This document shows positions 27,617-50,300 of a stretch of 64,000 bases of DNA, one piece after another. This DNA is from Amphiscolops sp. MND2022 (taxonomy: Eukaryota). The notes beneath the pieces are model-generated. The model had not been told where the DNA came from. It did no database searches and worked only from the letters and a program-made list of their open reading frames with translations. Made by a program: the position numbers and the translations under genes. Location: positions 10,728,001-10,792,000 of the forward strand of contig OZ076409.1 in the NCBI GenBank assembly GCA_964187785.1, read 5' to 3'. Position 1 is the stretch's first letter, and every line of letters begins with the position of its first letter.

Positions 27617-27994
27617 TAGTCTGCGCTTTTTGACAAAAGTGCCCGACTATTACATTGGCTAGTTTTTTTTACTTTTTTGTCAAACCACAGAGTTTACCCT
27701 GTATGTACCACTTTTTGGTACAGAGGTTAATCGGTTTAGTGGAACTCAGCAGTCGCAGGTTCGAGTCCCTGATTTGACTAGAAACTTTTTCCTGCATTTG
27801 CAAAACCGAACGATACTGAAAGGAAAGTCTTTCGGTTTTGTAAGACTTTTTCACGAAAGTTTTTTAACGCCTCCAAAGCGTGCCTCCTATTTTTGAAATT
27901 TTGCAACAAACTGAACTTTCCGAAAAACTCAAAAGTACCCCTTTTACAGTTTTCGGGATTACAGCTTTAGGCTAAATTTTTCGTCTTCAAACTA
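27617..27994 (+). mobile_element. DINE-1/Helentron-like repeat interrupted by LTR element 1
   Basis: Begins TTTTTAGTCTGCGC...CCCGACTA like other copies and runs up to the TSD of element 1. Confidence 0.5.
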
Positions 27995-30233
27995 TGTCGG
28001 ACCCGGGTGTGTGGGCCGGCTTTGAAGGACCTTTCGAACTTGATGGTCGATTTTCACCGTCTGTTTTGCTTATGACTGCCATCATTAAGTCCTTCAGTTG
28101 ACTAAACTCACTTTGTAACTCGTTTATTTTCCTCTCGTAACTTTCTCTTATTTCAGACAACTGAGACGAGATATCTGAAGTTTCATTGCTATCGGAGTCA
28201 TTGGCAGATGACTGGGCCATGTCTGGGTCAGTTGGAACAGGTGTTTCTAACGAGGAACTAATAATTTTACCACTTCTGAGTTCAGTACCTTGTTCTGGGG
28301 TCATATAGACGAGTGAAAAGAGTTATGAGTGAAGGCTGAATTATTTGAGGTGTTATTGCGATGTATTTTGCTGTTTTTCTGATTTTATTATCTCTAATTC
28401 ACTAAACTTGAACAGAGATGTTTTATCGATGATTAGTACAAATAAGCAAGTCGTAAGGAAAAGTAGTAGGAAATTAACAAGGTGAATAGGAAAGTTCATC
28501 CAATGTTCATCGCAACAGTAAGTGCGTCAAAGGAATTACTCAGTTTTCAGTGTTTTAGTTTCTGAAGATGAAAATGCGATGTATTTTTCGAGTAAACTTC
28601 GACGTGAGATATCTTACTGGATGGTAGCTTGTCACAATTTCGGTCTCAGTAATCGCTAATGGAGGTCCAAATTACAGCAGTTCACGTGTCTTTTCGGTTG
28701 GTAAGACGCTAAATCTCTTACCAACCTTCTCTCATTGGCTGTTGCCAGCTGGTGTTAAAATGGTATGTCACGTGACCGGTGTTGTAAACTGCCGCAAGAT
28801 GGCTTAGCACCATGGTAAATCTACATATGCAAATGATAATTAGTCATTAGTTTACAAGATGTCGCAATTGCCTGCACATAACACAATGGTTGCCATAGCA
28901 ACGAAAATGCATCAAAAGTAATCGATATCACACTAATTTCAGGCTAGATCAAGTTACATTATATCACAGGATGGGAGAATGATGATTTTCCAATTAGAAA
29001 CAACAGTAAATCGATGCATATAAAACCAAAGGTGAATATGTGATGAATTATGACCTTATTTGTTGATTTTCAAGTCTAGTTTAGCTCTGGGATGAATGTG
29101 CGATGAAATGTAGTCTTTCTCGCTCGAAAATCAACACTTTTTAAATCAACGATGGTAAAAGGATGAACTCTCCCCGAAAATAGCTAATTCCCAGCACTAG
29201 TGAAATTGGCGATGAATTCAGGATGAATTCACTCGATAAAACAGGTGAAACAGCTAATTCTGCAGTAAAGACAATTGCACGATGAGTTTAGGATGAACTT
29301 GTCAGTTAAAACAGCAAATATCAAGGCAATACAAATTGGCGATGAGTTTAGGATGAACTCAGCCCAAAATTCAGCTAATTCTAGCACAAGTTGAACTAGC
29401 GATGAATTAGCGATGAACTTTTGCAATAAATCTGCCAAATGTAGCGCAAGCTAAATTGACGATGAACTAGTGATGAACTAGTCTAATAAAACAGATATCC
29501 AGCACTTCACTCTTTTTTAGGATGAATTAAAGATGTACTTTCTCATTTCTTACTGTTACTAGTCAGGACGATGAAATATGGATGTGTTATGCTCTTTAAG
29601 AAATGAGAAGCACATTGAAAGTTAGTAACTACAATACGGCGATGAGTATGGGATGTTTTTCATGCATTTTAAAGTCCCGTGAGATCCGCTGATGGATCAT
29701 TAAATAAAATCAAATAAATGTCCCAATTTTTGTTCAACCGCAATCTTGGCGATGTGATTGCGATGAACTTCGGCAAAATAGCACTAATTTCACTGGTACG
29801 TCAAGCTGAAAGATCACTAAGTCTGCTGATGGATTAGTGATGAATTTTTCGTGAAATTCGTCACGACTACAAGCTCTGAGGCGGGGAGCTAGTAGAAGTT
29901 ATACGTCTCATCATTTAAGCATCCTTCGGTCCAGTCTGACCGGAAAATACTTCTCTCCCTTGTCGTGACGAACCAATATTGAATAAGATAGCACATTAAA
30001 GGCCATTGGCAAGATCATTTGTGCGGACACCGGAACTAGAGCGCTCAGTATTAAATAAATATATATAGCTCAAACTCAGGGGGGGATAGGGATTAAGGTA
30101 CAAATAACGTAGGGTTGCTCACAACCATGGCTCTTATTATATGACATCATATTGCCCATATCTAAGTACATAAGACATAATATTTACATTACAGATATTT
30201 AGTAGATTATATTTCCATCATGCTGGCATGACA
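27995..30233 (-). repeat. 3' LTR of element 1
   Basis: TGTCGG...ATGACA; near-identical to 45099-47337. Confidence 0.97.
28970..29845. repeat. About 60-bp-period array of GATG-N7-GATG doublets in the LTR (also at about 46074-46949)
   Basis: Doublets start at 28970, 29091, 29151, 29211, 29281, 29341, 29401, 29461, 29521, 29570, 29641, 29751 and 29828. Confidence 0.9.
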
Positions 30234-31402
30234 CTCCCGGGGGTGGGATTTGGACTGAGAGTGCAGGGGCCAAATGTGCAGAGGATGGTTGTCTCGGCGT
30301 TGGCTTCGACTGTTTCCTTCGTTTGTTGGGGAGAAAATGCCCTTCGTTAGTTCTGAATTTGCATGTCCTTCGTTTGTTCTGTCCTGTGAGAGCTTCTCTG
30401 AGAAGAGGACCTTCGGTAATCGTCATTTCTGGCATCATCCTGGGTGATTTCGGTTAAAATGTTCGACGCGGCAACTCTAATTCTTGGCCCATCGAATGTC
30501 CGCTGATCTGCATTATATTGGTCGTCATGCTTTTGTCGGGAGCTCGGTTTGTTGATTATTTCGGTAGAAATCTCGATTTCCTGGAGAAAAGTTTTCCCCC
30601 CAGGCCGCCTACGCTGAGTAAACATTCAAGGCGTCTTCATTGACAAATTCGCAGTGAGTTGTCGCCGCTATTCGTCTAATTGCAAATTCTCGGGATGAAT
30701 GAACGATGAATTGTTTGCTCAGCGAGACATCGATGCTGGTTTAGCGGAACGGCTCGCGCCGCTGCTTTGTTTATTCGCGATGGAAAGGAGATGAATCGTC
30801 GTCATAGCCACTGTCAAAAGTTACTTCCGTTGCTCGACTTTGAGTGATGAGAAAGAGATGAATTCGTCGCCATAGCAACTGTTGCTCGATCTGATTGGCT
30901 GAGACTGGATTTATAACTGAAGGAAATTACAACCGGTTGTCAGCAGCATTCTCATCCATAAATCATCCTCCATTCAAGTCGGTTTGAAAATCGCCACGAT
31001 TTCCTTTGCGCGTTTCCGCTCAACTTCGTCGGTATTGATCTGAGACTGGCAGCTGTCAACAAATCAAATACTTGAAGTTTTTTGTCAAGTCTTAGGAGGG
31101 GACGATCCATTTTCAGAGAAAGCTTGAGCTGGCTGTACTGGGAAGAAAAGTGATGTCAGTATTTGAAATCGGAGAGTTTTTCATCGATTTTTCATCTTCT
31201 GAATTCAAGTATTTGATTAACATGGCATTCAAGCTGCGTCGCGCTCTTTGAAATCTTCTATTGAATTTGTTCTTCCGTAATCATGGTTGATCAGGCCATT
31301 TAATTACTGATCAAATTCTCTGTTCCTGAATTCTTCGATTTCTTTCCTTCTTTCACCTTCTTCCATTCTTTTCAGATTGTTTGTTTTGCAATTCAGTTCG
31401 AG

Positions 31403-34400
31403 ATGTCAGACATTCATTCAGTCTACTCCTTACCAGATACCGAGGTCACAGAAAGTAAGTGCACTAGTTTTTTCTTTTCTTCACAAACGGGTTAGGGACA
31501 ACTAGGTACTGAAAATACGTCTTGCCTTAGCTGACTCAGTCCATTCTGTTGGCATCGTATCTGAGTTGACGACGCTTCAAACTGTGCCGCCGCAAGAGAC
31601 TCCAATAGCCCAACCAGCTATCGCTGAGCCTCAGGTTGACCCTGGTAGTCAGCCTAATCAAGAGTTCAATGTCCCGTATCTTCCGCAGTGTAAGTATTAT
31701 CCTTCCGGCCTTCAGTTCAGTCTTCGAATCCCTCATATCTCATCCTTACTTCGTCCAGTAGTTGACTCCTTTCGTACGGTGTTTCAGACCACTACCCTTG
31801 GTATGCCTCTCTCGGCAGTATCACCTTCGGGTGGTATGACCGCCACATGCGGGACATGCTGCGGGACAGTATCCAGCAATTCAGTGAGTTTGTCGATTTC
31901 TCTTTCATTCTTCTAGGCGATCGTCCGAACACTCCGATGTGATTCCGATGTAAACATCTCATCTGCATGTAGTGTCCTTTGTGGTCGATTACCCATGTAA
32001 TTCATTTTCAAGATGAATTTAGGATGTGTTATGAACATTCACCGTTCTTCATGACTGGCTCGCTGTAAATCTCATTCTTTGAAGATGAGTTTTGGATGAA
32101 ATCTTCTCCAGTCTTTTTCTTCGCGCGGCGTACGCGCTCTTTCTTCTCCAATCGTCGTCGCTCAGTAACCGTTCCTTTTTCAGGCCCCACACCGATTCAC
32201 GCGCCGAGGCCTCGGCCCATCACCTATTCCATTGGAATAGGGACTAGTGATCACCAGGCTGAGAACATTGATGCTAGTACTCAGGGAGGGCCTCCTCAAC
32301 TTGACTTGTCCTCGTTCCTTCAGGACTTGTCATTCGGGAGTGTAAGTTCTCCTGTCAGGCAGGCGCCAGTGTCTGTACTGTCGCCAGTGTTGAGGGGTTC
32401 TTTCGCCGCTAGTAGTCCTCCTCCTGCTCGTATCACTCTCGACGCTGCTGTAAATGCTGTTGTCGATTGCGTGGATGCAGTCATCGATGCCGTTGTCGAT
32501 ACCTCTGATCGAGCAGTCCAGGCCGTTGTGGAAGTCAGTGAGTCCTCCACCTTCCATGATCCTCCTGTTGAGGAACCTGTCATCGTTGCCTCTTCTTCCG
32601 TTCCTGCTCTTTCAGTCAGCGGCACTGATACACTTGGTGATGCTTCCGTGAGTACTGCCGGCAGAGCTGAGACCCTACTTGAAGTCCCTGGTGACTTCTC
32701 GTTCGACAGCCTTCTGCCTGCTGAACCTGACCGAGAATCTGCTTCTCCCAGTGCTGCTCTCATGTCGACCGTGGCTTCTCCCATGGGACCCAATCTACTG
32801 GATAGTGATGACGAACCAATCGCGTCCCGTCTGCCAGGTTAACTAAACAGCTTTAAACTGGTGAAGTATCTGATCAGTAGATTTTTCATTCATTTCCTTC
32901 TTCGCTTTTGCTTTCACTAGCATTTTTCACGTTTTTCTTCTTTTCTATCCATTTTTCATCGTTCTTCTGTTTTCACTATATGGTTTTCTGCAGTTTTCCA
33001 TTTTCCATCACATTCTCATCGTCAAAAGTTGTTGAACAATAGTTTTTCGCTCTCTAGTCCTTTTTTAGAAATTTCATCTCTTTTACATCTTTAAAATTTT
33101 CTCTTTTCGGTTTTCGCTATTTTTCGGTGTTTTCTTTTCAGTTTTCATCTCTTTTTCATCGTTAAGTTGTTTTCGCTCTAAAATATCTCAATTTTTGGTT
33201 CAAAGTCGTTCTATTTATCTCTTTTCCATCGTTCAAGTTTTTCATTCTTTAAGGTTTCCATTTTTCATTCTGGTGGTGTGCAAAACACATCTCTTTTTCA
33301 TCTTTTCGTTTTTTTTTCGTTTTTCGCTTATATTTCCCGATGAAAATATTATTTTACATCATTTTTTCATCACTCCGGGTGACTTTTGGAAGTTTGCGTT
33401 GGTTTTTTCATTTTTCAGTTTTTAAAGGATTATTTTAAGATGATTTTGGAATTTCGTGGGAACGTGGTCGTTTTTAGTGGATGTGCTATGTGTTGGCATG
33501 TGATTATTTCTGTTTGTAGGGCGAAAAGTGATCAAGTCATGGTGGTTTACTCATGGATACTGTGGGCTTGCACTGGGCTATGCACGAAGTCATCAATCGC
33601 GGCTATCATTCGTTCGATGTTTACTGTGCAAGCGTGATATCAATGTTGGCAGCCGTGGTATCACTACATTCATGGAGCATTGACGTGGGCTCCGTCACCA
33701 TCGTTTGGACTGCCTGATTCGTTTGTTTCGGGATTTACCGTTGCGGCGACGCGACGGGTCATTGATGAGTAATGAAGAGAGTGTGGAGTGTAGGAGCAGC
33801 CTGGGCGGTGCAATGGTGCCGTTCATTGAGACGTGCCCCTCCTTTAGTGTACTGGAGGTGTTTGAGTTGGAAGCAGCTGGACGACCTGTGTGGGGGGACG
33901 AGGAGGAAGAGGATCTATTGTGTGAAAAGACGGTGCATCTGTTCGTGTGCCTGGTTATTGACTCAATCTATCGTGGGTGTCAGTTCGCCAGCGTAACGAG
34001 TTTGTGGGAGGTGATGGTTGCGTCAGAGCCGCAACATGCCTCTCTTTTCGGTGTTACTTGCGAAGTGAATGACGTGATGGTAATTCGTATTTCTTTTTGT
34101 TTTTTGTTTCATGAAGATTCGTGTAGATGAAAAAATACATTTGGTGGGTGGTTTTCCATAGGTAGTTTTGAAGCTTGGGTAGGGGGGATTTTCAACTATT
34201 AATTGTGTCGGGTTATTTTTAAGCGGATAGTGATTTAATGTATAGTAAAGTTGACGTTTGTTTTTAGAGTGTGGTTCTACTGTGTTTGTGGCCGTACGCG
34301 ATGAAGAGGCTAATCACTCTGTGGTCTAACTGTGGGTTCACTAGCTTTCATGTGGCTGTTGGGCAGGGGCGAGTGACTGGCACGGTCACAATGTGTTCTC

Positions 34401-36183
34401 TAGAAGGGATCAGTCAGTACTGTGTCTTCAGTTTTGGTCTGTCTCAGGATTGGGAAAAACGAGTTGTCACGTGGATGATTAACATGTGGTGTTGTTTGCT
34501 TGGAGAACCTGTTCCACTTGGACTGTGTTGCGATGCGTTGCCACAGCTGGGTGGACTGTTCCAAGCCGCCACTGGCGTTGGGTCACTGGAGTTGAAGACG
34601 CTGTCATTGTGTGAAATCAGTCGGACAATTGTGGACGTGGGAGGGCGGGCGCTCGGCGGGACTGATATTCACGTGGTGCTGAATCATCTGCAGAAAAGAC
34701 TGAAGGGATATGTCAGGGATCCTCTGTTGTTGAGCTGCCCTCATCTGTTGCAGGTCGGTGTAGTCTTCCGCTTTTATTTGAGTGTTACTATGAGTTGTGC
34801 TCTTTGTCTGTTTCTGTTGTTTGTATATTGGTAGTAGTTTGTATTGTAATATTTTGTTTTATCTATGTGGAGCTTGTTATGTTTTGTTTAGGCGATTTTA
34901 TCCGGGGAAGTCTACGTGTGGACTCTTGCTGATGTGTGCGACGAATTACGTGCCAATTGGGCAGAAGTGCTGTGTCTAGTTCGATTCGCTTCGGGAGACG
35001 GGCCAGTAGATGCGTTGGATCTTACTTTGAGGGTGGAATTTGGGATCCCAATCAGGCTTCGGGCACTTAGTATGGTCTATCGTGCTTGTTAGTATGTTGT
35101 ATACTTACCGGGTGGGAAGTTTATGTAGTTGGCCGTTTTTACGTATTCGAGTGTTTAATCAATTCGCATTTTTCGGGAAGGGAACGGGGGGGGGGGTTAT
35201 TCCGATTATTTACTGTGTATAGAATTGGTGTGTTTTTCATTTCAGTAGTGACGTCGTACGAAAAGAGTTTCGGGTCTTCATCATTGCGGAGTTGCTACTG
35301 GGCGATCGAGAGTGCATTCTTTGTGAAACGCCTGCTGACTCTACTGGTTGACGAAGAGAGCCTGCCCACTGATCTGGATATCCGTGGGTGGTTGTTTGTG
35401 GATGTAGACAGTTATGTTGTGTCAGCGACTAAGTTACAAGCCCTTATCGAGAGTTTCAGCTCGGATGAGAATTTGACGGAAGATGTGGCTGTGTATGAAG
35501 AGGATGTGTCCCGGGTGCCTAATTTCTTATTGTCTATCGTCAGGAACGTATTATTGCTACCAGGGATTCGTGACGATCTTGCTTTCGCGCGAAGTGTCTT
35601 TAGTTCACCCAGACTGGTTTGTGTGGCGGAAACTGATCTTGTGGCGAAAATTCGCAATTTTACTGGATTACTTGTGGAAATGGGGCGGATCAGTTTAGTC
35701 GAACAGGATCGAATGGAGCTCGGATTTCTGGAATTTATAAGGGCTTTTCGGTGCGAGCCTAGGCCAGCTGGGGCGACTGCCGAGTATTCAGCCGTTGATC
35801 TGTTGCGTTGCTGTTCCAGTCGCGGGTCACAGAGTCTGTTACAACTTGTCTTTTGCCTGGGAGGGGTGGTGCAGAGCACTTGCAATACCATATGCGAAGG
35901 GATCGGGCACCTGCCGAGCGATGTCATGAGCTGTGTATGTGCAGTAATCTCTGGTTATTTGTCTGCTAATCATGTGCGAAGTTACGGTAGTGTCAGTGGG
36001 CCACTGTTGGAAGAAGTGATGGAGTCGCACAGAAGGCTCGTTGATCTATCAGAGATTACAGAGGGCATGTTGTGGGACGACGTCGGTATCGTGGCTGGGG
36101 AAGATTATCGTCTCCAGTTATATGCTAGTCTTGGTTACGATGTGACCGGGGAGCGGGCTGCCAGTCCCGAGATTGGAAACTGA
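31403..36183 (+). CDS. Predicted spliced gene antisense to element 1: disordered N-terminus, zinc finger, hAT-transposase-like body lacking obvious catalytic residues (about 1028 codons, one in-frame TGA)
   Basis: Exons 31403-31454, 31531-31689, 31759-31800, 32184-32837, 33520-34079, 34268-34753, 34892-35087, 35246-36183. All introns are GT-AG and phase-compatible; total 3087 nt. C-x2-C-x16-H-x5-H finger; AATAAA at 36284. Confidence 0.75.
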
Positions 36184-36283
36184 CTTTTTAACTGTTTATG
36201 TTGTTCATTGTTTTGCTATATAATTTGTTGTATTTACATATTAGTGTAGTTATTCATATGTTGGGAGACCCATGAAAAAGGTC

Positions 36284-36289
36284 AATAAA
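36284..36289 (+). terminator. Candidate polyadenylation signal of the antisense gene
   Basis: AATAAA about 100 nt after the stop codon. Confidence 0.45.
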
Positions 36290-38820
36290 TGGAAAGCACA
36301 GTAACGACCATAGTGAGAATGATACAAATCCAGATGCTACGGCGGAAAGATCGGTAGTAGTGTATTTACAACATTAGTTATTTTGGTGCCCAATATCTGT
36401 TTTTCTATGGAGTTGTTAGTGATAGTTACAGAGGATATTAAGTACGTGTAAATCAACAATTTCGTCCAACAGTTCACTTGAGGCATTGTCTTCTGTGTTT
36501 TTGTATCATAGATCATCGGTGGCGCTTCGCTTTTTTGGTGTTCATCGTTATTACATCTCGTGGGAGTGTAGGTAATTCGTCAGCGTTTGATTTTTGATTT
36601 CTCATCTCCTTTTCATCACGTTTTCCTCGGTCGACCGAGCGACGTCGCGAAAACTGTTTTCTCATCTTTTTTACATCGTTCGTTATATGCGATTCATTGC
36701 ATGTTTGTTACATGTGATTTTTCTACATAGTTCATCGTTTTTTCATCTTGCGGTTTCATGTTATCATTTTGTCGAGTTATTTGTTGTAGTTCATCGTTTT
36801 TGCATCGCGAGTTTGACTTGCCCGTTTTTGTCCAATTTGCGGCATAGTTCATCTTCTTTTCATCGTGGTTTTGAAATGTACGAATTTTTGCGTGTTTTCG
36901 ATGTTATTTGTCTATAGCGTAAGCGGGGGTTGCATTTTTCATGTCTGAGGGAAATTTTTATTAATATTGCGGTGTTTTCGGAGTGTTTTCTTCATGTATT
37001 TTAGCGTTATACGGTGTGGATCGTTTGTCGTGTTTTTGAAATTGCATGAATTTTAGTGTACATGTGTATTAAGCATCATCATTGCGTTTTGAATTTGTCA
37101 TCTTTTGAACATCATTGCATGAGTCATTTTTCGGAGTTTTGTGACTACCGCTTGCGTGGAAGTCGAAATAGATGTTCACTCAGCAGTGGTATTGGTACCC
37201 TGTAGGCGTGCAAGGTACTTGGGGTTCCAATCCAAAGCTGTGTGAGTGGAGCTGCTGCGCTCCTTTCAGATGAACGAATTCTCTTAGTTTCACACTGTAT
37301 GTAGTCTGCATGTTATTTTTTACGATCGGTTGTTGTCTTTAAACGTCCAAATGGGTTTATCCATTTGACGGTTCATTTGCTCAATCAAGGTAATTGATAT
37401 CTACGGCTTTGCATGTTTCGAGTTTTTAATTAGGTGATATTGTGTGTTCATGTTCGCATCATTGCATAAATTATGTTTTAAATGGGTGGCCCCATTATGT
37501 GCATGTTGTGTTATTTTTCGTCGGTTGTTTCATGTATTGATAATTTTATTTTTGTTCGTGAATTGGGACAGGGCTTTGTCGTCACAAAGCCCCTACAAAA
37601 CTAAACTGAGAATCCACTGATCATCATAGGTTTCCCCATGAGTCACAGCTTCATCCGGAATGGTAGTGAGCACCCCAGATCAACCAACAAGCACTCTTTT
37701 CAGAGAATTGCCCGCCAGCACGAAGGAATGATGTCGGTATTTGGCGAGGCTATTTTAGTTATTCGAATCGGATGTTGCTAGGAGTTGCTCTTTCCATTCT
37801 CCCAATTTGTGTTATTCTCGTGATTTTCATTTGATTGCATGTGTCTTAATCGGGTGCATGTAATCTCGATCGTTCGTTTCTTTTTGGTTCGCCTAGGTTT
37901 ATGGTGATTTGGTGTGAATTGCATATGTTATCTCGTTCATTTTTGAACGGTACATGTATATTTCGTGTGTTTCTCATTTGTATTGCATGTAGTTTGGAAT
38001 TGTCAATTTGTTTTTCGTGACGTCATTGATTTGGCAGGTCTTTGAACCTTACATGTATTGCTCATTTCATTTATGCCGTGGCATAATTCTATTTGCATGA
38101 TTCGAAATAAGGTCGGCTGTTTGTTATCGTTTCGTGAAGTTACATGTTGTTTGAGAATTAGCTGTTTTATTGTGATGTTATGTTGATGGTGTTTCCCATC
38201 ACAAGGAGTTTTTGGTAAGTCATCAAATATTTTCGAATTTTCATTTAGACTAAATTCATCGTTTTGACATCCTCCAGCGAAGCTAGAGTATTGTGTCAGG
38301 CTAACGATAAATTCGGTCACGATTTGATGGTAGTTTCCATCACAAAATCATCTCGTTAATTGATTTCATATAATGTCTGAATAATTGAATCGAGTTCATC
38401 GCTATTTCATCCTCTAGCCGAGCTAGAGTATTATGATAGCATGAACTTGAGTGCGATCGTATTGTGATGGCATTTTCCATCTCAAATACATCGCTAGTAG
38501 ATATTGCATGTTGATTGGTCGAAATTTTGACTAAGTTCATCACTTTTTCATCTCTCGTGTGTCTGAGCTAAATTTTCATGTGATTTCATCCTTTTTTCAT
38601 CTCGAAAATTTCATGTTCCGTTTTTTCTGGTTTTTTGCTCGTTTTTCATCCGTTTTACATCGTGTTTTGTTTTTATGCGTTTTTCATGTGATTTTTAGTA
38701 ACTTTTCATCCATTTTACATCTTCATGTTTGTTTTAAGTTGAAATTGCATGTAATTGACTGGTTTTTGAGACCTTTTCATCCTTAACACATCGTGTGTTT
38801 GGAAATGTGGTTTTTCATGG

Positions 38821-41800
38821 CTAAATCGTTACGTTTACTTTGTTGGTCTTTCTCAGAGAGTTTCTGGCTGATGTAATCTCATGAATAAGGAAGTCAGGAT
38901 ATTTTTTCGGTGTAGGGTTTTCGCGTAACCTGTACCTACTTTGATTGTTTCTAGAAGGTCTAGAACTCATCCTTTCCTCATCTTCAGTTTGCGTGTTTGT
39001 CGGTTGTGACTGATTTTCGTGTTGTTCGTCTGTCAAAGGTACTCTTATCCTACTCTCATCGCGGGGGGGCGGTAGGATAATTTCCTCCTGCGTTCCAAAT
39101 CTAACTGTAGGTGGTCTAAAGTTGTTGTGGTCAGTTTCTACTTGATGATAATCTATTCTCGTGGTTATTTCTGGTGGAATTACTTGTGGACCGTGTTGTT
39201 CTTGTACCTGCGGAATTGTTTCTTCTGAAGGCTCTTCTTCGACTAAGTCTTGGTCTAGATTGTCATTCTCATTCTGATCTACTTCGTCGGTCGTCGGAAT
39301 ATTCGAGTCGAAAATGTCCGTGTCTTCAACCCTTTCAGTGTCTGGGTAGAGATGTTTGGACACGTTGATGTCATCAATCGGAAATTCCGGTTTGCACAAT
39401 CTCAGTCGCATGCGATGTACGCACTGAGTTTGGTGTGTGCCTACTTTGCGGATGATGTAGTTGCTATCGGATAGCACTTTAATCACCTTGTACGGTCCTT
39501 TCCAATGGAAAGTTTTAAACTCTTCTTTGCTTCTCTGAGAGTCGTACTTAGGATCTAGTAGGAACACAAATTCATTCACCTTCAGTGGCTGTGCTCGTGC
39601 TTTTCTGTCATAGTACGTTTTGTACTTATGATAGGCGGAAATGATGTTATCTAGATTGTCTCTGAAGATGAAGTTCATTTTGTCTAGAATTTCATTCACG
39701 TCCTTGCACTTTGTTTCAGCCGGTTTGTTTGCGTTTCGGAATTGCAGATCTAGTGAGTTGTATGGTGTTCTTCCGTGGAAAATTTCAGTTGGTGAACATT
39801 CAGTGAATCATGATACGTTGTGTTATGGGCCATGATTGCTATGTCGACATAGCGGTCCCATTGTGGTCTGTCTGCGTTTACACTAATTTTAAGGATCTTT
39901 TTCAGTTTCGCGTGCGTTCTCTCCACCATGCCTATTGTCTGTGCGTGCTTTATCGTGGCATGTGAGATGTGAATATCAGCCGCTTTCGCGATTTCAGACA
40001 GAAGTTCAGCCGTAAACGCCGTGCCCTTGTCCGTCAGAATGTGCTTGGGCACATACGCGTGTTTCGTGAAGATCGACAGTAATCCTCTGACTACGGAATG
40101 TGTATCAGGTCTCTTCAGCGGAACGGCGAACAGGTAGCGCGAAAAAACATCAACAGCCGTCAGAATGTGCGTAAAACCGTTCGACGCCGGGAGTGGACCA
40201 ACGATGTCTATTTCCAACAGGTCTTCTGGTCCGTCGCACGGGTCGTAGATTTTTTGTAACGGTGGACGTAGTTGCGTTTCTTTTACACTTTTAGATTTCA
40301 TGCAGTTTTCACATCCTTCAAGGACTTTTTGAACTTTACAGGCTAAGTTAGGAGAGTAATATCTTTTACGAAGTTCGTACAACATTTTCTTCAAACCGGG
40401 GTGTCCTTGCACTGGACTGTTATGCAGAGTCCTAATTATTTTCAAGATACAGTCTTCAGGAACAACTAACTGCTTGTGAGACTCCAGTCCCGTGTGATCA
40501 AAAAACTGTCTGTACAGGACACCGTTTACAACTTGTAGACGTTTTCGATTTTTGTGCAACTTTTGAAAAAACTGATCTTGCATATTAACTGGGTGTTGCA
40601 AAATTTCAGTACCTTCCAAAAATCTAATCATTTTTTGAATAACCCAGTTATTTTTCTGGACCTGAATTAGATCGATCCCCTCAGCAGGGCTAACCTGACT
40701 CATTACCGGGTGTGATAATGATACTTTACGGATGAATTGTGATAGTTGAATCGGCTCGTCCACGTCTGTGAGGCGGTACGTCAGATGGTTGTCAGTTGCG
40801 AAGTCATCTGAGGCCGCTGTTCTCTCACAGTTGGTGAACTTCATCCCTTTCCCATCGTCTTGAGCCACGTCGGTGCCAGGTGCCAAGTTCATCTCTTTGA
40901 CATCCTTCTGGCGTTTGCATCTGAGTGGTTCGCTCGTGGGAAAGTAATCAGGCTCGTCTTCCTCCTGTTTTGGTGTACGGGAGGCGATGTCGATCTCGAT
41001 TCTGTGAATTGGAATAGTATCAGTCAATTTTAAATGAACACGGTCTTCAGGTCTAATCTCAAGCCGAGATAAGTAATCCGCTGCGGGATTTTCAACTCCT
41101 GGTACATGTGCTAGTAAAAAATTGAACTGAAGGGTTTGGTCACAAAAATTCCAAAGTGAAGGCGGGATATGCTTCGCCTGAAAAAATCTAGTCAAGGCCT
41201 TATTGTCAGTCATAACAATGATGGGTTTTTTCGCACCCCACAAAATGTGGCCAAATTCATCGAAGGCAAAGTGCATAGCTAAAAACTCTTTGGCATACAT
41301 TGTTAGAGACATCTGGCCGCCCTGAAATTTCTTAGAGCCAAATGCAACAGGGGCGTATGTATGTTTGACTGACGGGTCAGCATAATCCTCGATTAACAAC
41401 ACATAGCCGGCAGCGTGTTCGCTGGCGTCACACATGATTACCAATTGTTTATCTGGTAATGGCAATTTCAGAGACACTTTTGTTGCTTTTAACAAACTTT
41501 CATTAATTTCAAAAATAGCATCTTTATGTTGCTGGTTCAGTTTGAAAGGGACGTCTTTCTTGATGAGTTCCTGTAAACAACAAGTTTTATCAGCTAGACG
41601 GGGAATATAAGACCTGTAAAAGTTTACAAAACCAAGATAACGTTGCAACGCTTTCACTGAATTGGGGGGTTTCAACTTGGTTAAATAATCTGTTACGCGT
41701 TTTTCAATGGGAGCAATACCAGTGCTAGAAATGGTTTTTCCTAGGTACTCAATTTGTTTTTGTCCAAATTCACATTTATTCATGCTAAGTTTAAGACCAG

Positions 41801-43912
41801 CTTTGTACAATTGCTGAAAAACAAGTTCAAGGTTAGTAATCAATTCTTCGGGTGAGTGTGCTGCGATTCCAATATCATCAACATATTGGGCACACCGGTC
41901 CGCTTTGACCAAGGGGTCCAAATACTCACGGATTACGCTTGTGAATGCTGACAAAGAACGATTAAGACCTTGTGCTAGACGTAAAAATGCAAAAGTTCTA
42001 GACCCAAAATTAAAAGATAACAGTTGGACAGATTGCTCATCCGCCATTGGAATACAATGGTAGGCCTGGGAACAATCAAGTTTGCAGAAGTACTTTTTCC
42101 CGGCCATGTGTTGGGCAGCGTCAGCAATTGTTGTTACGGGATGGTTGTGCTCACCGTAATCGTTTTTGATCAGGTGGTTTATTCTTCTCAAGTCAACTAA
42201 AATCCTCAATTTACCATTAGGTTTACGTTGAGCAAATATCGGGGAAGAGTATTTGCTGTGAGGTAAAGTAGTTATAATCCCGTACTCTTGCATTAGAGCT
42301 AATTCCACGAGCAAATCGTCCTTCAAATTTATCGGAGTCGGGAGACTTTGTGAATAAACCGGTTCTTCATGTTGAGGTGTTAACTTAACTTTAAAATCAG
42401 TGTTCATGCCAATATCAAAACGATGTCTAGCAAAAATGGAGTTGTACTTTACCAGCAACTCCTCTACCTGTAACCGTTGAGACGGAGTAAGAAGCGAGTC
42501 GTCCCAGTTGAAGTTCTTCAGGAAGTTCATCCGTTGTTCATCGGATTGGGACGGGTCAAGCTTCTCGAGCTCTCGCAGTGCCAGAATCTCATCATAAATT
42601 CGTCGCTCAATTGCGTTGAGTTTGTCTGGCTCACTGCACGTCTCGGGAGTTGGGTACCACTTGGTTGACTTCATTTCAGGGTTCACGAACAGTTGGTTGA
42701 TCACTGCGTCGGCCTCATCTGGGTACTTGGTGATCAAGTTCAAGTGTTCCACTGGCATGGGCGTGATGTTTGCCGCCTGGTGTGGTGTCGGGATGCGAAA
42801 GTGTGCCAGAGTGGTGTTGGCTTCAAGTGTGTACGTGTGGTTGTTTGGGTTGGTGACCTGGATTGTCGTCTTGCCCTCGTCTAGGTCAACCAAAGCTGGG
42901 GAAACAAGCAAACACGTCTTTCGCATGAATCCAGGTGAGCCCTCAACTGTACCAGTTGTAAGTGAGATGTCCGCGTCACTGTGGACCTGTATCATCACTT
43001 GGTGGAGAGGGGGATCACTGTTCTGGTACTGGAACACAAATCAATTAAACCAGTTTTGAATCTGTTATTCTTTTGCTGTCTAACTTGCATGGACATCATG
43101 TGATTAGGGAAGTGGACAAGGTGGTTTTTGATGTCTAAATTGACTGAGTACTTTTCAAAAAAGGACATTCCAATTAAAATTGTTCCCATTGTTGGAAGGA
43201 TTAGGAACGTTTCTTCAAAGACTTTTCCAGCAACGTAAAATCTAAGTAAGACTTGCTTACGCACTGGGTCTAAGTTCCCGTTTGCTATTTGAATTTTGAA
43301 ATTCGGAGGGGGGAGTTCTTGAAGGATGGCTTCTGGATGAGCCGTTGTTATTTTTCGCAATTCTGCTTCAGACATTGCGCTTTGAATGGCGCCTGTATCT
43401 AAAAGTGCGCTGTTTTCATATTTGTCAAACTGAAGAGGGACGTAAAGCATTTTATCTTTCTTGTTTAAGTGTAAAGTGGGACTGAGAATGTGAATTTCTG
43501 TTTTAGTTGCATGTTTTTTAACTTTTGAAACGTTAATACTACTCTGTTTTGCATGTTTTTTAATACTAAGCCGTTTGTCGATTGTTGAGTGTGAAGTCGA
43601 GTCGTCGTCTAGATGGTGGGTTTCCATCTCTTTGGCATCTTCCACCTGCCTCATGGTGTTTGGTTGCCAGTTCATCGTTTGTTCATCGTTGATTTCAGCG
43701 AGTGGAGAAAAGCGGCTGCCGTTGAGTTGACGTGCATTTCCCATCGCTTTTTCATCGTTGGAAAGTCTTCGCTGATAGACGTCATCAGCTTTTGGTCGTT
43801 TGTCCAGTGAAGGCTGCCATTTCTTCATTGGACGGTTGCAAGTCTGTTGTTGAGTCGTAAGTCGTTTGTCGCGCGTGTCGTTGGTAGCGGACGGAAATCG
43901 TGGCGGAATCAA
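38821..43912 (-). CDS. pol: Pol polyprotein of element 1 (PR, RT, RNase H, integrase) with two single-base frameshifts
   Basis: PR LLDTGA; RT LDCSQAY and YVDD; RNase H CDAS and TDNKAL; IN HHCC plus DIVGP, TDKG and VER. Frame breaks near 43010 and 39800. Confidence 0.95.
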
Positions 43913-45408
43913 AAACCCTGATTTATGTCTTCATCAGAGTAGCTTTCTTGGTCTTCTTCTTCGGCAACTGCTTGCATAGGATTCATCGGCTTTTGCTGTC
44001 GTTTTAAATCTTGTCGTCTAGCCTTGTTGTCGTCTTGTGAGTTCGTTGTGTATGGAATCTTTCCATATGCAGAGCTGCTTTCCTTGGGAATTCGTCGTCT
44101 GCAGTCTCTTGCAGAGTGTCCGGTGTAACCGCAAATCTGGCAGACCAACTTCGGATTGTATTTCGGTTTATCTGGGTCTGCTGCTTTCTTCATCGGGATT
44201 GCATCTTCCTTTTTGATGCCGTTTGCTTCGTCACGTTGGCGGGCGCGACATTCTGTTTTGCGGTGGCCTGTCTTTCCGCAGTAGAAACATTGTCCCTCGA
44301 ATCGTTTTCTTTCCGTGGTTTGCGTTGTCGTCGTTGTTGTGGGCTTCGTCGTTGTTGTTGGGGCTGAGGAGGTGACCGCGTTAAATGGTTGGATTGCCGC
44401 AGGTGGCGCGACGTACTGCTGGTACTGGTACTTGCGCATTAGGTAGGTTTTGATTTCCTCTGGGGAGCTCTCTTCTTTGTTTGCGATAGTGAGCTCTTGT
44501 TGAATCTCGACTGGCAGTTTTCCAAACAAGAACATTTTGATTACTCTGTCGGCCTCATTGCCGAAGGCTTGTTTGGCAGTCTTCTTGAGATTTTTGAGGA
44601 AATCTCCGAATGTTTCTGTTGTGGGATCATAACGTGCTTGGTCCCACTTGTAACGGGCCACTTCCTTGAGATCCTCTTTTGCAAATTCTTTTCTGAAGAG
44701 GTCGAGTACATCCTTTAGTGTTGTCATTGGCGTTATTTGGATGGATTGCCAGTATTCTATTGCGTCATCTCTCAAAAGGCTTTGAAAGAAGTGTAGTTTG
44801 TTCTCCTCGGTGATTTTGTTGGCAAGCGGGCTAAGGTGGTTGAGGAGAAGGTGTTCAAATTCGACGAATTTGTCTTTTTGGCCTCTGAAATTTGGCACGT
44901 GTGTCTGCAGTAGCTTCGTGTTGGTGGTGGTGCTTTTGATCCGTTGGGGGATCGTCTCGATTGCATTGAGTAGTCGTTCCTCATTGCTTCTGGGGGTTGA
45001 TTCTCCTTCTTCGTCTGAGTCGTCTTCTTGGTATCTTCTGAAGTTGGTGAAACTGGTTGTCGGGCGGGTGGAGCGGGTTTCTGTAACTCCTGTCACCATG
45101 TCGGACCCGGGTGTGTGGGCCGGCTTTGAAGGACCTTTCGAACTTGATGGTCGATTTTCACCGTCTGTTTTGCTTATGACTGCCATCATTAAGTCCTTCA
45201 GTTGACTAAACTCACTTTGTAACTCGTTTATTTTCCTCTCGTAACTTTCTCTTATTTCAGACAACTGAGACGAGATATCTGAAGTTTCATTGCTATCGGA
45301 GTCATTGGCAGATGACTGGGCCATGTCTGGGTCAGTTGGAACAGGTGTTTCTAACGAGGAACTAATAATTTTACCACTTCTGAGTTCAGTACCTAGTTCT
45401 GGGTTCAT
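43909..45408 (-). CDS. gag: Gag of element 1 (499 aa, two CCHC knuckles)
   Basis: CFYCGKTGHRKTEC and CQICGYTGHSARDC; capsid-like region (VPNFRG...LRDDAIEYW). Confidence 0.93.
   Translation of the reverse strand: MNPELGTELRSGKIISSSLETPVPTDPDMAQSSANDSDSNETSDISSQLSEIRESYERKINELQSEFSQLKDLMMAVISKTDGENRPSSSKGPSKPAHTPGSDMVTGVTETRSTRPTTSFTNFRRYQEDDSDEEGESTPRSNEERLLNAIETIPQRIKSTTTNTKLLQTHVPNFRGQKDKFVEFEHLLLNHLSPLANKITEENKLHFFQSLLRDDAIEYWQSIQITPMTTLKDVLDLFRKEFAKEDLKEVARYKWDQARYDPTTETFGDFLKNLKKTAKQAFGNEADRVIKMFLFGKLPVEIQQELTIANKEESSPEEIKTYLMRKYQYQQYVAPPAAIQPFNAVTSSAPTTTTKPTTTTTTQTTERKRFEGQCFYCGKTGHRKTECRARQRDEANGIKKEDAIPMKKAADPDKPKYNPKLVCQICGYTGHSARDCRRRIPKESSSAYGKIPYTTNSQDDNKARRQDLKRQQKPMNPMQAVAEEEDQESYSDEDINQGF
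43912..43918 (-). promoter_or_regulatory. Candidate -1 ribosomal frameshift heptamer G_GGU_UUU
   Basis: XXXYYYZ heptamer directly before the gag TGA; the -1 frame (TTG ATT CCG) is the pol frame. Confidence 0.75.
45086..45098 (-). other. Primer binding site of element 1 (tRNA-Leu-like)
   Basis: TGGTGACAGGAGT directly after the 5' LTR; resembles the complement of a tRNA-Leu 3' end (TGGTGTCAGGAGT, from memory). Confidence 0.7.
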
Positions 45409-47337
45409 ATAGACGAGTGAAAAGAGTTATGAGTGAAGGCTGAATTATTTGAGGTGTTATTGCGATGTATTTTGCTGTTTTTCTGATTTTATTATCTCTA
45501 ATTCACTAAACTTGAACAGAGATGTTTTATCGATGATTAGTACAAATAAGCAAGTCGTAAGGAAAAGTAGTAGGAAATTAACAAGGTGAATAGGAAAGTT
45601 CATCCAATGTTCATCGCAACAGTAAGTGCGTCAAAGGAATTACTCAGTTTTCAGTGTTTTAGTTTCTGAAGATGAAAATGCGATGTATTTTTCGAGTAAA
45701 CTTCGACGTGAGATATCTTACTGGATGGTAGCTTGTCACAATTTCGGTCTCAGTAATCGCTAATGGAGGTCCAAATTACAGCAGTTCACGTGTCTTTTCG
45801 GTTGGTAAGACGCTAAATCTCTTACCAACCTTCTCTCATTGGCTGTTGCCAGCTGGTGTTAAAATGGTATGTCACGTGACCGGTGTTGTGAACTGCCGCA
45901 AGATGGCTTAGCACCATGGTAAATCTACATATGCAAATGATAATTAGTCATTAGTTTACAAGATGTCGCAATTGCCTGCACATAACACAATGGTTGCCAT
46001 AGCAACGAAAATGCATCAAAAGTAATCGATATCACACTAATTTCAGGCTAGATCAAGTTACATTATATCACAGGATGGGAGAATGATGATTTTCCAAATA
46101 GAAACAACAGTAAATCGATGCATATAAAACCAAAGGTGAATATGTGATGAATTATGACCTTATTTGTTGATTTTCAAGTCTAGTTTAGCTCTGGGATGAA
46201 TGTGCGATGAAATGTAGTCTTTCTCGCTCGAAAATCAACACTTTTTAAATCAACGATGGTAAAAGGATGAACTCTCCCCGAAAATAGCTAATTCCCAGCA
46301 CTAGTGAAATTGGCGATGAATTCAGGATGAATTCACTCGATAAAACAGGTGAAACAGCTAATTCTGCAGTAAAGACAATTGCACGATGAGTTTAGGATGA
46401 ACTTGTCAGTTAAAACAGCAAATATCAAGGCAATACAAATTGGCGATGAGTTTAGGATGAACTCAGCCCAAAATTCAGCTAATTCTAGCACAAGTTGAAC
46501 TAGCGATGAATTAGCGATGAACTTTTGCAATAAATCTGCCAAATGTAGCGCAAGCTAAATTGACGATGAACTAGTGATGAACTAGTCTAATAAAACAGAT
46601 ATCCAGCACTTCACTCTTTTTTAGGATGAATTAAAGATGTACTTTCTCATTTCTTACTGTTACTAGTCAGGACGATGAAATATGGATGTGTTATGCTCTT
46701 TAAGAAATGAGAAGCACATTGAAAGTTAGTAACTACAATACGGCGATGAGTATGGGATGTTTTTCATGCATTTTAAAGTCCCGTGAGATCCGCTGATGGA
46801 ACATTAAATAAAATCAAATAAATGTCCCAATTTTTGTTCAACCGCAATCTTGGCGATGTGATTGCGATGAACTTCGGCAAAATAGCACTAATTTCACTGG
46901 TACGTCAAGCTGAAAGATCACTAAGTCTGCTGATGGATTAGTGATGAATTTTTCGTGAAATTCGTCACGACTACAAGCTCTGAGGCGGGGAGCTAGTAGA
47001 AGTTATACGTCTCATCATTTAAGCATCCTTCGGTCCAGTCTGACCGGAAAATACTTCTCTCCCTTGTCGTGACGAACCAATATTGAATAAGATAGCACAT
47101 TAAAGGCCATTGGCAAGATCATTTGTGCGGACACCGGAACTAGAGCGCTCAGTATTAAATAAATATATATAGCTCAAACTCAGGGGGGGATAGGGATTAA
47201 GGTACAAATAACGTAGGGTTGCTCACAACCATGGCTCTTATTATATGACATCATATTGCCCATATCTAAGTACATAAGACATAATATTTACATTACAGAT
47301 ATTTAGTAGATTATATTTCCATCATGCTGGCATGACA
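45099..47337 (-). repeat. 5' LTR of element 1
   Basis: 2239 bp, TG...CA, next to the PBS; I saw only about five substitutions versus the 3' LTR. Confidence 0.97.
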
Positions 47338-50300
47338 AACTAAGTTTTCTCAGCGGCCCAGCACGCTATATCCAGTTTTTGACGTTATATTTGACGCAAG
47401 TTGAGTTTCACTGAAGAGGAGGCCGAAGGCATGAATCGAGCAACGAACACTGATTTTGGAAAAGCCTGCTTGGCTGCGGACGTTAGATTTTCTGAAAAGT
47501 TTTTTTTTGTCACTCGTGCTGTCATGTTTCTGAAGAGCACAAGTAAAATGCAAATGTGATCAGGGACTGGCGAAAGACCTTGGGGGTGAGTAGGATGGGT
47601 GACATTAAGTTTGGAGTGGTTTCTTGACTTACAATTGTAGTACGATCAGAAAAAGTGTTCTTTTTCAACGATGGTAGTCACCAGTGTGCTTGTTGTTCTG
47701 CTTTGAGACGCACTGCGTCCAAAGTCTAAACCTCTAAAAGTGACTATAAACGCGCTTCAGCACCCACAATGCACGTAGGGCACTGAGCATGCGTGATTTC
47801 AATGAATAGTTTGCATTTAGGTGACTTTGATAGCGGTTGTAAGGAAAAACGCGATTTTTGTGTTTTTCACTACTACGTCTCGTAGACAGTTTTCCGGCAA
47901 ATCAAGAAATTTAAAATGGTCCAGCCACCGCACAAAGCACTTCAGCGAGCCTTATTAGGTGTGTCTAGTGTGAAAACGATGTCGTTGCTGTACTTTGTTA
48001 GTTTCAGACGGTGTCTATCGAGCAATTTTTGTGCAAATTTTGCAAGAATCAGCTAATTTTTCGTTAGAACGCACGTCTCTTGAACGTGAAAATCACTTCC
48101 AGACCTGCTAAGGACCTGAAAATTTCGCACAGTATACGACGCTGCTGAATCGGGAAAATTACCACCGATTGAGCTGAAATTGACTGTACGTGATTTGCTG
48201 GTGCTTGACAATCTTGTCAGGAAACACTACCATGTTGTAAAATTCACACAAGTTCGTCAAACTCACCTTCCAGGCGTCCTAGCTACGTGAAAGTTTGTGC
48301 GCGAGAGCAAATTATGCCCACATAATAGAAAAGCACAGCGGCGGGATGGCTGGATCAATATCTGGCGATTCGAGGTGACAAAATTATGATGTACCCGAGT
48401 TACCACTTTATCGGTTCAAAATTCACCAAAATGTCAATTTCTCAGCGTTGACTAGCAGCCGGCTGCTCAATTTGTACAAATCCGCTGGATCTGGTATCGT
48501 GTGTACGAAAAAGGAAGAATTTCAGTGCTGAGATACCTCCAAGGTATTGCACTATGATCAACTAAACTTCGATTTTTTTCGACACTTTCACACGATTTTT
48601 GAGCAAACATGCGGCCACGATTTCTCAATCACTTGTAATGCTAGCGCTACGAAAATTACAGCACTAACGTAACTTTTTGCGGTCTACACGATGGTTTCTT
48701 TTATTTGAAGCTGCTACTACTAAGAGAGATTTCGACCTGTCTCGGAACCCACTGGTTAGAATTAATTACGGTTTTCTGCGTTAGCAACGTTATACTCTAT
48801 ACTAACAGAAAATAGGCAAGCGAAACCTGGCAGGTTCTATATAAGTTCTCTCAAAAAACTTTCATATTACACTTTTACTGGTACTTTTTTCATAGTACCC
48901 TCACGGAACAATACTGAAATCACGTATTCTAACTAAGATTTTCTCCTTTCTTTGTTCTCGGACGTTCCGGTTTGTTTCAACAGTAGTGTGAAAAGGTGTT
49001 ACAGTGTTATTCAGGGGACTAGGGTTGATTCATGTATTATTTTTGATGTTATGTCTCACGTTTATGGCGTTCTTTTCCCAGGTCTATGCATATCAAAAGA
49101 AAAGCACTGATAACGTTTCAAATTATATTTGTGAAAACTAGAACAGGGGCGGGAAGCAGGAAAAACTCCAAGTATGACGCAAAAACGAAACAGTGTCCCT
49201 TGTGGTGCGCCATGAAAACTATTCTAGATGTAACGTCCAGCTAGTAGCGCACATCCTAGAAGTGGATAATGCCTAGGATGCTTGAACAGGAGACCAGTGT
49301 CTTACTACACCTAGACATTAGTTTTTAATTCCAAAATGATCGCCTAAGGGGACTTTTCATGCGTCAAAAGAGGGTCCACAGTTAGAGCTCCGAGGCGACG
49401 TGCCGGCACTCTCAAAGTCGGGACACGTCCCACAAGCCTGTAAAAACGAATCCTAAGGTTCCTAACGTTCCTGCGACTTCATACATACCTCCGAGGTCCA
49501 AAAACATGGTTTAGCTGAAATACATTTTATTTGCAGATAAAGATCTAAAAGTGTAAACATAGGGATCTAGTAGATCCACTACCATCACAAATCTGCTAAA
49601 TAACATGAATTAACATTGAAATACAGTGGTAACAACACTTTCTAATCTTTCATGAAGTTTGCAGAGTTTTCGGGGTGAACCATTGAAGGGTTTGGCTTCT
49701 TTTTCGGGTTTTCCAGGACATTTTCTGAAAAAGACGGCACACAACTGTGATTTTCTCTCTTCTCACACTTCTGGGGTCTCTGTCTGTGTCTTCTTCACAG
49801 TCGGGACGGGGGTGGAGAGGGTTTTTTGCATTTTTTCTGCGTCTTGTTCGATTTTCGGTACCTGCTAGGTCCACCATTTTGAATTGTCTTATTTGATATC
49901 GCACAATTTTTGAATTACAACGAAATTTTGTTTCGCTGGTGCCGGACGTTACAATTAGTTCTTCATGCTGACTAAAACCATTCGGTATCTCTTGCAGTTG
50001 CCAATCGAAAGATTGAACTGGTAACAATGCAGTATTCAAGTTTTTGATAACTTGAAAAACTCAGAATAACACATGTTAACTTGAAACCTGCAGTGCAGAT
50101 AAGGCAATAATTACAATCTGTTTGATTGATCATAATTTTCAATAGTTTTTCAATTGGTTAGATTACATTTCAGAACTGTGATAATCATTTTGAGGAATTG
50201 CATCATCTTTTTGATGCGTTCCATATTTTCAACATTTGTGATGCGGTTTTGCTGGCGTTCAGTAAATAGACCAGTTGTCTCCAATGATTGTTTTTCCCGT

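Follow-up and report, generated by a model that had tools for sequence, protein, structure and literature searches.

A probable accessory gene on the antisense strand of a Ty3/Gypsy retrotransposon clade in an animal genome

Introduction

Antisense accessory genes carried by retrotransposons with long terminal repeats (LTRs) are on record from plants and fungi, and their function there is still unknown. In plants they lie between pol and the 3' LTR of Retand and Grande elements, according to the available text of PMC11963269 and PMC7264820. In fungi there is brtn, an antisense extra gene in the Boty-like Gypsy elements of Botrytis (as cited in the accessible part of PMC8365987). I consider here a gene of similar layout in an animal, Amphiscolops sp. 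MND2022. The animal origin also shows in the genome itself, with 75 rhodopsin-type GPCR matches at E<=1e-10. It lies on the plus strand of a stretch of 64,000 nucleotides, referred to throughout as the window (GenBank assembly GCA_964187785.1, contig OZ076409.1, positions 10,728,001 to 10,792,000), and is enclosed in a complete Ty3/Gypsy element that runs along the minus strand. All positions are those of the window.

Zhao et al. are said to have written on brtn of the Botrytis Boty-like elements in 2011. HBZ of human T-lymphotropic virus 1 (HTLV-1), one of the antisense genes known from deltaretroviruses, is made from a spliced antisense transcript that starts in the 3' LTR and has one intron, and it is a small nuclear regulatory protein of the basic leucine zipper (bZIP) type. 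Retroviral antisense accessory open reading frames (ORFs) are mentioned in the available text of PMC7264820 and PMC11963269. In the mussel Steamer-like element MchSLE-1, 4.76 kb in length, an antisense ORF of 67 codons has been named AS-SLE-1 (accessible part of PMC10974842). The transduction of genes by LTR elements is also documented, in the available text of PMC11963269. No antisense gene of several exons came up for any LTR retrotransposon of an animal in the literature searched, and the word "antisense" has zero occurrences in a paper on the env-carrying Gypsy elements of metazoans (PMC13524379). The layout is therefore already known from plants and fungi, while for the multi-exon animal case no report was found in that literature.

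An original prediction, made from the sequence of the window, had joined scattered plus-strand ORFs into one gene, likened its product to a dead hAT transposase, and supposed that the retrotransposon had captured and kept it. I argue that the gene is probably an element-encoded antisense accessory gene of a Ty3/Gypsy clade in an animal genome, and that a hAT ancestry finds little in its favor.

An antisense gene of eight exons

The host element is 19.3 kb long (27995-47337, minus strand), with LTRs of 2.2 kb. The LTRs have TG...CA ends, the 5-bp target duplication AACTA stands on both sides, and the Pfam matches on the minus strand run in the order gag with a CCHC knuckle, protease, reverse transcriptase, RNase H, integrase, as in Ty3/Gypsy elements. 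The LTRs emerged from blastn as a direct repeat of 2243 bp with 99.73% identity (27991-30233 against 45095-47337), trimmed by inspection to 2239 bp with TG...CA termini. Over that length the pair shows five mismatches. With LTRs 99.8% identical, the element was active recently.

Between the integrase and the 3' LTR is an interval of 8.6 kb devoid of any long sense-strand frame. This is where the plus-strand gene is housed, between pol (which ends at 38821, minus strand) and the 3' LTR (which ends at 30233), tail-to-tail with pol. As modelled it extends from 31403 to 36183 in eight exons totalling 3087 nt, phase-consistent across seven GT-AG introns. The donors are at 31455, 31690, 31801, 32838, 34080, 34754 and 35088, the acceptors chosen follow good pyrimidine tracts, and the frame closes with TGA at 36181-36183. 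Genes of the aORF-3R type code in the interval from pol to the 3' LTR, opposite to gag-pol, and are conserved among copies and lineages of the element. Both of these properties were found here; antisense transcription, which also belongs to the type, is predicted.

The reconstruction in the original prediction, seven introns leading to one frame of 3087 nt followed by AATAAA, holds for the donors, the phase, the length and the signal. What does not hold is that the frame is open in this copy. An in-frame TGA (33681-33683, plus strand, exon 5) cuts the protein inside its zinc finger. The predicted finger pattern CLLC-x16-H-x5-H is indeed present, and the TGA falls within its x5. All 29 sibling copies, those with 97.9-99.6% identity to the window, have a sense codon at the same position. 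The TGA is private to this copy, and the window copy is a pseudogene. It is broken in pol as well (38821-43375, minus strand), where the frame shifts twice, near 43010 and again near 39801, as judged by an uninterrupted relative of 1518 amino acids (P0143). That relative is 99% identical to the window's pol in the region from reverse transcriptase to integrase and only 93% at the integrase C-terminus.

The siblings tell what the gene looks like when intact. A DNA search of the 1.07-Gb genome with 34268-36183 gave 196 candidates, and all 40 that were scored are 97-100% identical. Without exception the 29 have donors 4, 5 and 7 and acceptors 5, 6 and 7 in place, along with the stop codon and AATAAA, and donor 6 starts with GT in 28, the remaining copy having a deletion there. 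Conservation of splice sites in siblings, which the original prediction had called for, is thus nearly complete at these sites.

Two details of the model deserve mention. At the intron 2 acceptor (31757-31761), the divergent copy of the element that I call copy E has the second AG alone, 3 nt downstream; the start of exon 3 may therefore lie 3 nt beyond the modelled one. An ORF from a foreign relative (P0059), whose N-terminus is collinear with exon 7 (E 0.002), reads from exon-7-like into exon-8-like sequence uninterrupted, which supports the junction of these two exons. In this relative and another (P0029), exon-7-like and exon-8-like sequence share one ORF, and intron 7 seems to be absent from their lineage.

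The gene recurs across lineages of the element

If the gene were a nested insertion, a mobile element or host gene that fell into this one copy, then it should be missing from the same place elsewhere and might bring its own ends with it. Nothing was found in favor of this. The gene is at the same place in 40 of 40 scored near-identical matches, in copy E, in 24 divergent loci and in a very distant locus, L049, and no terminal inverted repeats (TIRs) or separate duplication surround it. The copy data refute a nested insertion, the chance of which I regard as negligible. The claim that the gene is retrotransposon cargo is borne out to this extent, that it recurs in every copy and lineage examined.

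The numbers are large. More than 1000 candidate loci of the antisense gene, belonging to several lineages, reach down to 24% protein identity. A search with exon 8 brought up 67 relatives among 1.8 billion representative proteins, all of them single-exon ORF calls of at most 367 amino acids, and all ten clusters checked were unnamed. One of these relatives (P0005) matches a locus in the genome at 100% identity and, used as a genome query, gave 1153 candidates. Among the 127 of these that were scored, which fall into identity classes of about 100, 90, 82, 72 and 50%, exon 8 has no internal stop in 108. A foreign relative (P0026) found 926 candidates in this genome at identities of 32% or lower, so the family reaches beyond this species. 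A scan of JGI metagenomes for distant relatives produced 88 pattern matches, with none confirmed.

The structure of the gene is conserved along with its sequence. The order of the second part of exon 5 (5b), exon 6 and exon 8, with gaps between them, is found in 24 of 24 divergent loci, and exon 7 was detected in 13. Where the ends of homologous exons could be compared among 25 divergent loci (24-50% protein identity), the splice dinucleotides sit at exactly the homologous position and in the same intron phases: donor 5 is GT in 23 of 25, donor 6 in 23 of 24 and donor 7 in 14 of 14, while AG is found at acceptor 5 in 22 of 22, at acceptor 6 in 13 of 13 and at acceptor 7 in 25 of 25. Protein similarity ends exactly at the GT and AG sites. 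The introns are retained in all 54 other loci examined, as expected if, as had been proposed, the antisense orientation lets them survive reverse transcription; the mechanism itself is taken up below.

Full element architecture was compared in two further lineages, those of copy E and L049. The tail-to-tail arrangement with pol occurs in copy E, where pol is 96-99% identical. It occurs as well in L049 when a further 2.5 kb of flank is considered, and there pol is 69% identical and exon 8 is 24% identical. In group B, which has the most diverged gene, flanks of 1.5 kb suffice to see it in 3 of 12 loci.

Selection on the plus-strand frame

Perhaps the open frames are not genes at all, but a by-product of base composition or of constraint on the RNA of the sense strand. 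Both the strong G+T skew of the plus strand and the unusual conservation of the introns would fit. A by-product should not care about reading frame, however, and selection here evidently does. Between sub-lineages separated by 0.10-0.26 synonymous substitutions per site (dS), the ratio of non-synonymous to synonymous divergence (dN/dS) in exon 8 is 0.18-0.26. A six-frame control of exon 8 gave dN/dS of 0.18-0.20 and no stops in plus frame 0, while the other five frames have ratios of 0.25-2.7 and 10-24 stop codons. A low ratio combined with zero stops is found only in plus frame 0. Nor would a by-product have protein similarity that stops exactly at GT and AG or, in 108 of 127 scored loci at 50-100% identity, an exon 8 that stays open for about 310 codons. 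It is highly improbable that the frames arose in this way.

Other exons give similar ratios (0.13 for 5b, 0.12-0.16 for exon 6, 0.35 for exon 7). The siblings add another view. Variants common to at least two of the 29 copies are 23 synonymous and 16 non-synonymous, and private variants are 36 and 71. The shared variants are biased towards synonymous changes and the private ones are not, which implies that new copies stem from copies whose protein is intact. Per site, shared variants number 0.009-0.031 in exons and 0.029-0.080 in introns. Purifying selection acts on the plus-strand frame only, with dN/dS of about 0.2, and the expectation that the gene is maintained was supported by all three measures: dN/dS, the six-frame control and the sibling variants.

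The same facts bear on a different idea, that a host gene was transduced once and has been copied along ever since as a passenger, without serving the element. The relatives of the family are nameless, transduction by LTR elements is documented, and a function of the gene is proposed by analogy, all of which would suit a passenger. Against it, intron positions have been kept where pol is only 69% and the gene only 24-40% identical, and the contrast between shared variants (23:16) and private ones (36:71) is what one expects of a protein that matters to replication. A passenger is very unlikely.

The preferred reading, an accessory gene encoded by the element, has to face several observations that weigh against it. 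Simple purifying selection does not explain why exons diverge more than the introns next to them. Between lineages, in the comparison of 30234-36690 with a second locus (G000:C2:70004300-70022746), exons 1-4 differ at 30.8% of sites and introns 1-4 at 12.7%, with 3.4% in the 5' flank. Two loci with exon dS of 0.13-0.19 share intron 5 at 100% identity. Splicing, the transcription start and the poly(A) site of the gene are predictions from comparative sequence. That exons 1-4 join exons 5-8 would follow from two lineages, those of the window and of copy E, in which the splice sites are conserved and the frames open. The call of a BED-type finger is borderline, under the Pfam cut-off on intact exons. 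Finally, two thirds of the protein have no recognizable family or fold, so that any function is a guess by analogy.

A further peculiarity of the divergence is the kind of difference involved. On the plus strand, differences between C and T outnumber those between A and G within the gene, with 90 against 52 in its exons, whereas gag-pol has 63 against 92.

The gene and gag-pol have separate histories

Then there is the discord between the gene and the rest of the element. The gag-pol of copy E is about 96% identical in DNA to that of the window, with a pol dS of 0.19. Exons 2 and 4 of the same copy have dS of 0.77 and 1.35, and exons 5-8 are saturated. With their introns, exons 5-8 give only 49-61% identity in DNA alignment, and 41-66% in protein. 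The opposite occurs among the siblings: in 20 of 29, the gene is 98-99.3% identical to the window's and the next 1.4 kb only 84-87%. Such discordance between gene and backbone means that they have separate histories and that the family is a recombining swarm. To judge from these alignments, the antisense gene behaves as a module, which recombination reassorts against gag-pol.

One segment stays put. The 1.2 kb upstream of the ATG (30234-31402) is 97% identical between copy E and the window, in contrast to the LTR (only 72-88%) and the exons (64-85%).

It is possible, though I hold it as a doubtful extension, that the gene is a fast-diversifying and freely reassorting specificity module belonging to an invertebrate retrovirus-like element. 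By this account the element would encode its own DNA-binding factor, which co-evolves with the cis sites of its lineage, in the LTR or in clusters of TTTTCATC, or with a silencing factor of the host. If this were true, then near-identical gag-pol backbones would be carrying versions of the gene only 40-50% identical, much as retroviruses swap env, and the excess of exon over intron divergence would be the trace of an arms race.

The 8-mer TTTTCATC, noted for the region 31178-38781 (plus strand), occurs 28 times in the window where 6.9 are expected, and none of 100 shuffles reaches 28. Its clusters may be candidate cis sites.

The encoded protein and the hAT transposases

The product of intact copies has about 1028 residues: some 300 disordered Pro/Ser/acidic residues, a BED-type zinc finger, and about 670 conserved residues without a known family. 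The P/S/acidic N-terminus of the original prediction is there, in exon 4, as are the peptide strings it quoted. The finger matches zf-BED (PF02892) with E 2.8e-4 and 21.3 bits on the window fragment 33504-33680, just over the gathering cut-off of 20.6. The score is 18.8 bits on the intact exon of a sibling and 13.7 bits on copy E.

Apart from the finger, searches for families came back empty. Pfam on seven exon pieces gave zf-BED and chance-level rows, with no family for exon 4, and on 17 exon-8 relatives and 21 exon-6 relatives it gave single chance-level rows only. Transposase_28 (PF04195) has no match in any exon at E<=1. Against sequence profiles of the PDB the best E values were 0.4 for exon 6 and 0.74 for intact exon 5, with nothing for exon 8. 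AlphaFold, supplied with the family alignment, folds exon 8 as an all-helical domain with a predicted local distance difference test score (pLDDT) of 69 (residues 1-200 mostly above 80), and exon 6 as helix, three strands, helix at a pLDDT of 45, which is low confidence. Foldseek against the PDB found nothing at E<=0.001, the best values being 0.86 for the exon 8 model and 0.086 for the low-confidence exon 6 model. Foldseek and VIA-align listed no significant match and no hAT structure, and the best scores in the ESM Atlas, 0.83 and 0.85, are below the level of a lead.

What, then, of the proposal that the gene is a catalytically dead hAT transposase captured by the Gypsy element, with a BED finger, an RNase H-like core, an insertion domain and a C-terminal dimerisation domain? 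BED fingers in animals mostly derive from hAT transposases, and a BED-type finger is present. The roughly 670 residues that follow it come to about the length of such a transposase. In the low-confidence model of exon 6, three strands and a helix follow one another as they do at the start of an RNase H-like fold, and exon 8 is all-helical, as an insertion domain should be. The genome is also rich in hAT elements, with 2215 candidates for the hAT dimerisation domain PF05699.

For a direct test, true hAT transposases were collected, and their profiles compared with the profiles of the family by hhalign. The probabilities were 0.07% for the RNase H-like core and 0.16% and 0.14% for the dimerisation domain. 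In the same searches, database relatives of the true hAT proteins carry PF05699, PF27039 and PF27041, whereas in the gene's exons and in its 17 + 21 family members none of PF05699, PF27039, PF27041, PF04937 and PF10683 appears at E<=1. The C-terminal PF05699 with its signature W...P..S...ER.FS, in particular, has no match at that threshold in exon 8 or its 17 relatives. Of the columns that are invariant in the family, none corresponds to the invariants of the hAT alignment, TRW and W...P..S...ER.FS. The PDB profiles already mentioned tell against the proposal too. In the motif LGLCCD, which had been put forward for the second catalytic Asp, the D is not conserved, relatives showing E, T or G instead.

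No TIRs bracket the gene. Six inverted pairs occur in 30234-38820, and the only one that brackets the gene (19 nt, 89% complementary) is a TTCATC-type motif that is abundant there. The test for a nested insertion with its own TIRs and a separate duplication thus came out on the side of cargo, the gene not being confined to one copy. A C-terminal string, '...W-x25-GERAAS...', was likened by eye to the hAT 'W...SERxFS' and rejected, since relatives show Q, D or A in place of its Glu and the two strings are not aligned by hhalign.

The borderline finger is the sole link to hAT transposases, with Pfam, hhalign and the search for TIRs all negative, and the fold checks that had been suggested, profile comparison and AlphaFold with Foldseek, gave no hAT match (the exon 6 model being of low confidence). 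A hAT derivation is unsupported by these comparisons and looks unlikely, though a very old capture is still conceivable.

Features of the element and its surroundings

Coordinates are collected in Table 1. Several features of the element stand apart from the antisense gene. The gag frame starts within the LTR, by about 310 nt, and crosses the primer-binding site (45099-45426, minus strand). Because it starts within the LTR, the same frame start is duplicated in the 3' LTR (27995-28322, minus strand). From 32000 to 46000 the strands are strongly asymmetric, with plus-strand skews that reach +0.30 for GC and -0.32 for AT, so the sense strand of the element is A-rich and G-poor.

Table 1. Positions of the element, the predicted exons and associated features in the window.
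Feature	Position	Strand	Remarks
Target-site duplication AACTA, left copy	27990..27994	.	Identical five bases just beyond the other LTR end
3' LTR	27995..30233	-	2239 bp, TG...CA ends; blastn direct repeat
Region from 3' LTR to ATG	30234..31402	+	Presumed antisense promoter and 5' untranslated region; polypurine-tract side on the other strand
Exon 1	31403..31454	+	ATG at 31403; ATG and GTAAGT donor kept in copy E
Exon 2	31531..31689	+	Frame open; copy E 77% identical in protein, with dN/dS 0.25; splice sites conserved
Exon 3	31759..31800	+	Acceptor is a tandem CAG/TAG
Exon 4	32184..32837	+	Pro/Ser/Ala/Val/Asp-rich, probably disordered; open in window and copy E; protein identity 58-60%, dN/dS 0.24
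Exon 5	33520..34079	+	BED-like zinc finger (Cys/His ligands within 33618-33701), then conserved stretch of 132 residues
Exon 6	34268..34753	+	162 amino acids; predicted helix, three strands, helix, further helices; homologs at 28-75% identity
Exon 7	34892..35087	+	65 codons and 1 nt; found in 13/24 divergent loci
Exon 8	35246..36183	+	C-terminal domain of 311 amino acids, predicted all-helical; ends ...SPEIGN, then stop
AATAAA polyadenylation signal	36284..36289	+	101 nt past the stop; same in 29/29 siblings
pol (protease, reverse transcriptase, RNase H, integrase)	38821..43930	-	Pfam RVT_1, RT_RNaseH, rve, Integrase_H2C2, Integrase_p58_C, gag-asp_proteas
gag, CCHC zinc knuckles	43909..45426	-	Pfam zf-CCHC; stop-to-stop frame begins within the 5' LTR
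5' LTR	45099..47337	-	blastn direct repeat, trimmed
Target-site duplication AACTA, right copy	47338..47342	.	Directly outside the LTR

The window holds a second Gypsy-type pol at 51944-63090 (minus strand), with reverse transcriptase, RNase H and integrase within 59220-62519. It sits in a GC-rich block of 52-56%, against about 37% elsewhere. Behind its integrase, in the same frame, follow abutting stop-to-stop frames of 482, 410, 355, 825 and 257 codons, none of the five with a Pfam match. This element would have about 7 kb of extra sense-strand coding potential downstream of its integrase.

A model for the gene and its place among known systems

I propose that the gene is transcribed on the plus strand from an internal promoter, probably in the conserved 1.2 kb beside the 3' LTR. 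Its seven introns would be spliced out and the RNA polyadenylated at AATAAA. The RNA that is reverse-transcribed would be the other strand, where the splice signals read CT...AC, and every new copy would therefore inherit the introns. The product would be a nuclear DNA-binding factor that serves the element, regulating its transcription or chromatin state, or guiding its integration. By analogy with the antisense nuclear proteins of Grande and Retand, and with HBZ of HTLV-1, a role of this kind seems the most likely.

What is unusual here, next to the plant and fungal cases, is the size of the gene, with eight exons and about 1028 codons, together with more than 1000 candidate loci in a genome of 1.07 Gb, recent activity and clear selection. 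The gene is a natural demonstration of how introns, facing backwards, pass through reverse transcription. A protein with a zinc finger and orphan domains is tractable material for asking what such genes do for a retroelement, and the modular exchange of an accessory gene against a near-constant gag-pol bears on how retrovirus-like elements gain and swap genes. Annotators should take warning as well. Repeat masking hides a whole protein family, and the 67 relatives found have neither a name nor a gene model beyond one exon.

How close is the gene to those already described? Like the hAT and ZBED proteins it has a C2H2 finger of BED type, borderline here, on the N-terminal side of a large protein, and it differs in having no detectable dimerisation domain, RNase H-like or insertion-domain signature, or TIRs. 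The mussel element MchSLE-1 is likewise an animal LTR retrotransposon with an antisense ORF, and antisense transcription is a property of MchSLE-1 itself; no intron, conservation or domain is mentioned for AS-SLE-1 in the accessible part of PMC10974842. HBZ offers another reverse-transcribing element with an antisense gene for a nuclear regulatory protein, splicing and a nuclear role being predicted in the present case. The gene considered here differs from it by its seven introns, by the BED-like finger and by the size of the protein, which is about five times that of HBZ.

The Gypsy elements of other kingdoms belong in the comparison too. Like brtn, going by the accessible part of PMC8365987, the gene is an antisense extra gene inside a Ty3/Gypsy element, in a host of a different kingdom. 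Then there are Retand (TRP28 domain) and Grande (gene 23). They too have a long region from pol to the 3' LTR with a gene on the opposite strand, in the available text of PMC11963269 and PMC7264820, and in those sources the gene is conserved across its lineage and short repeated motifs lie in the same region. There the antisense product is nuclear and DNA-binding, as predicted or shown, and here such a product would be expected by analogy. The word "intron" is absent from the text of PMC11963269 and PMC7264820. The present gene, by comparison, belongs to an animal host, has a BED-like finger in place of Transposase_28, and spreads its roughly 1028 codons over eight predicted exons.

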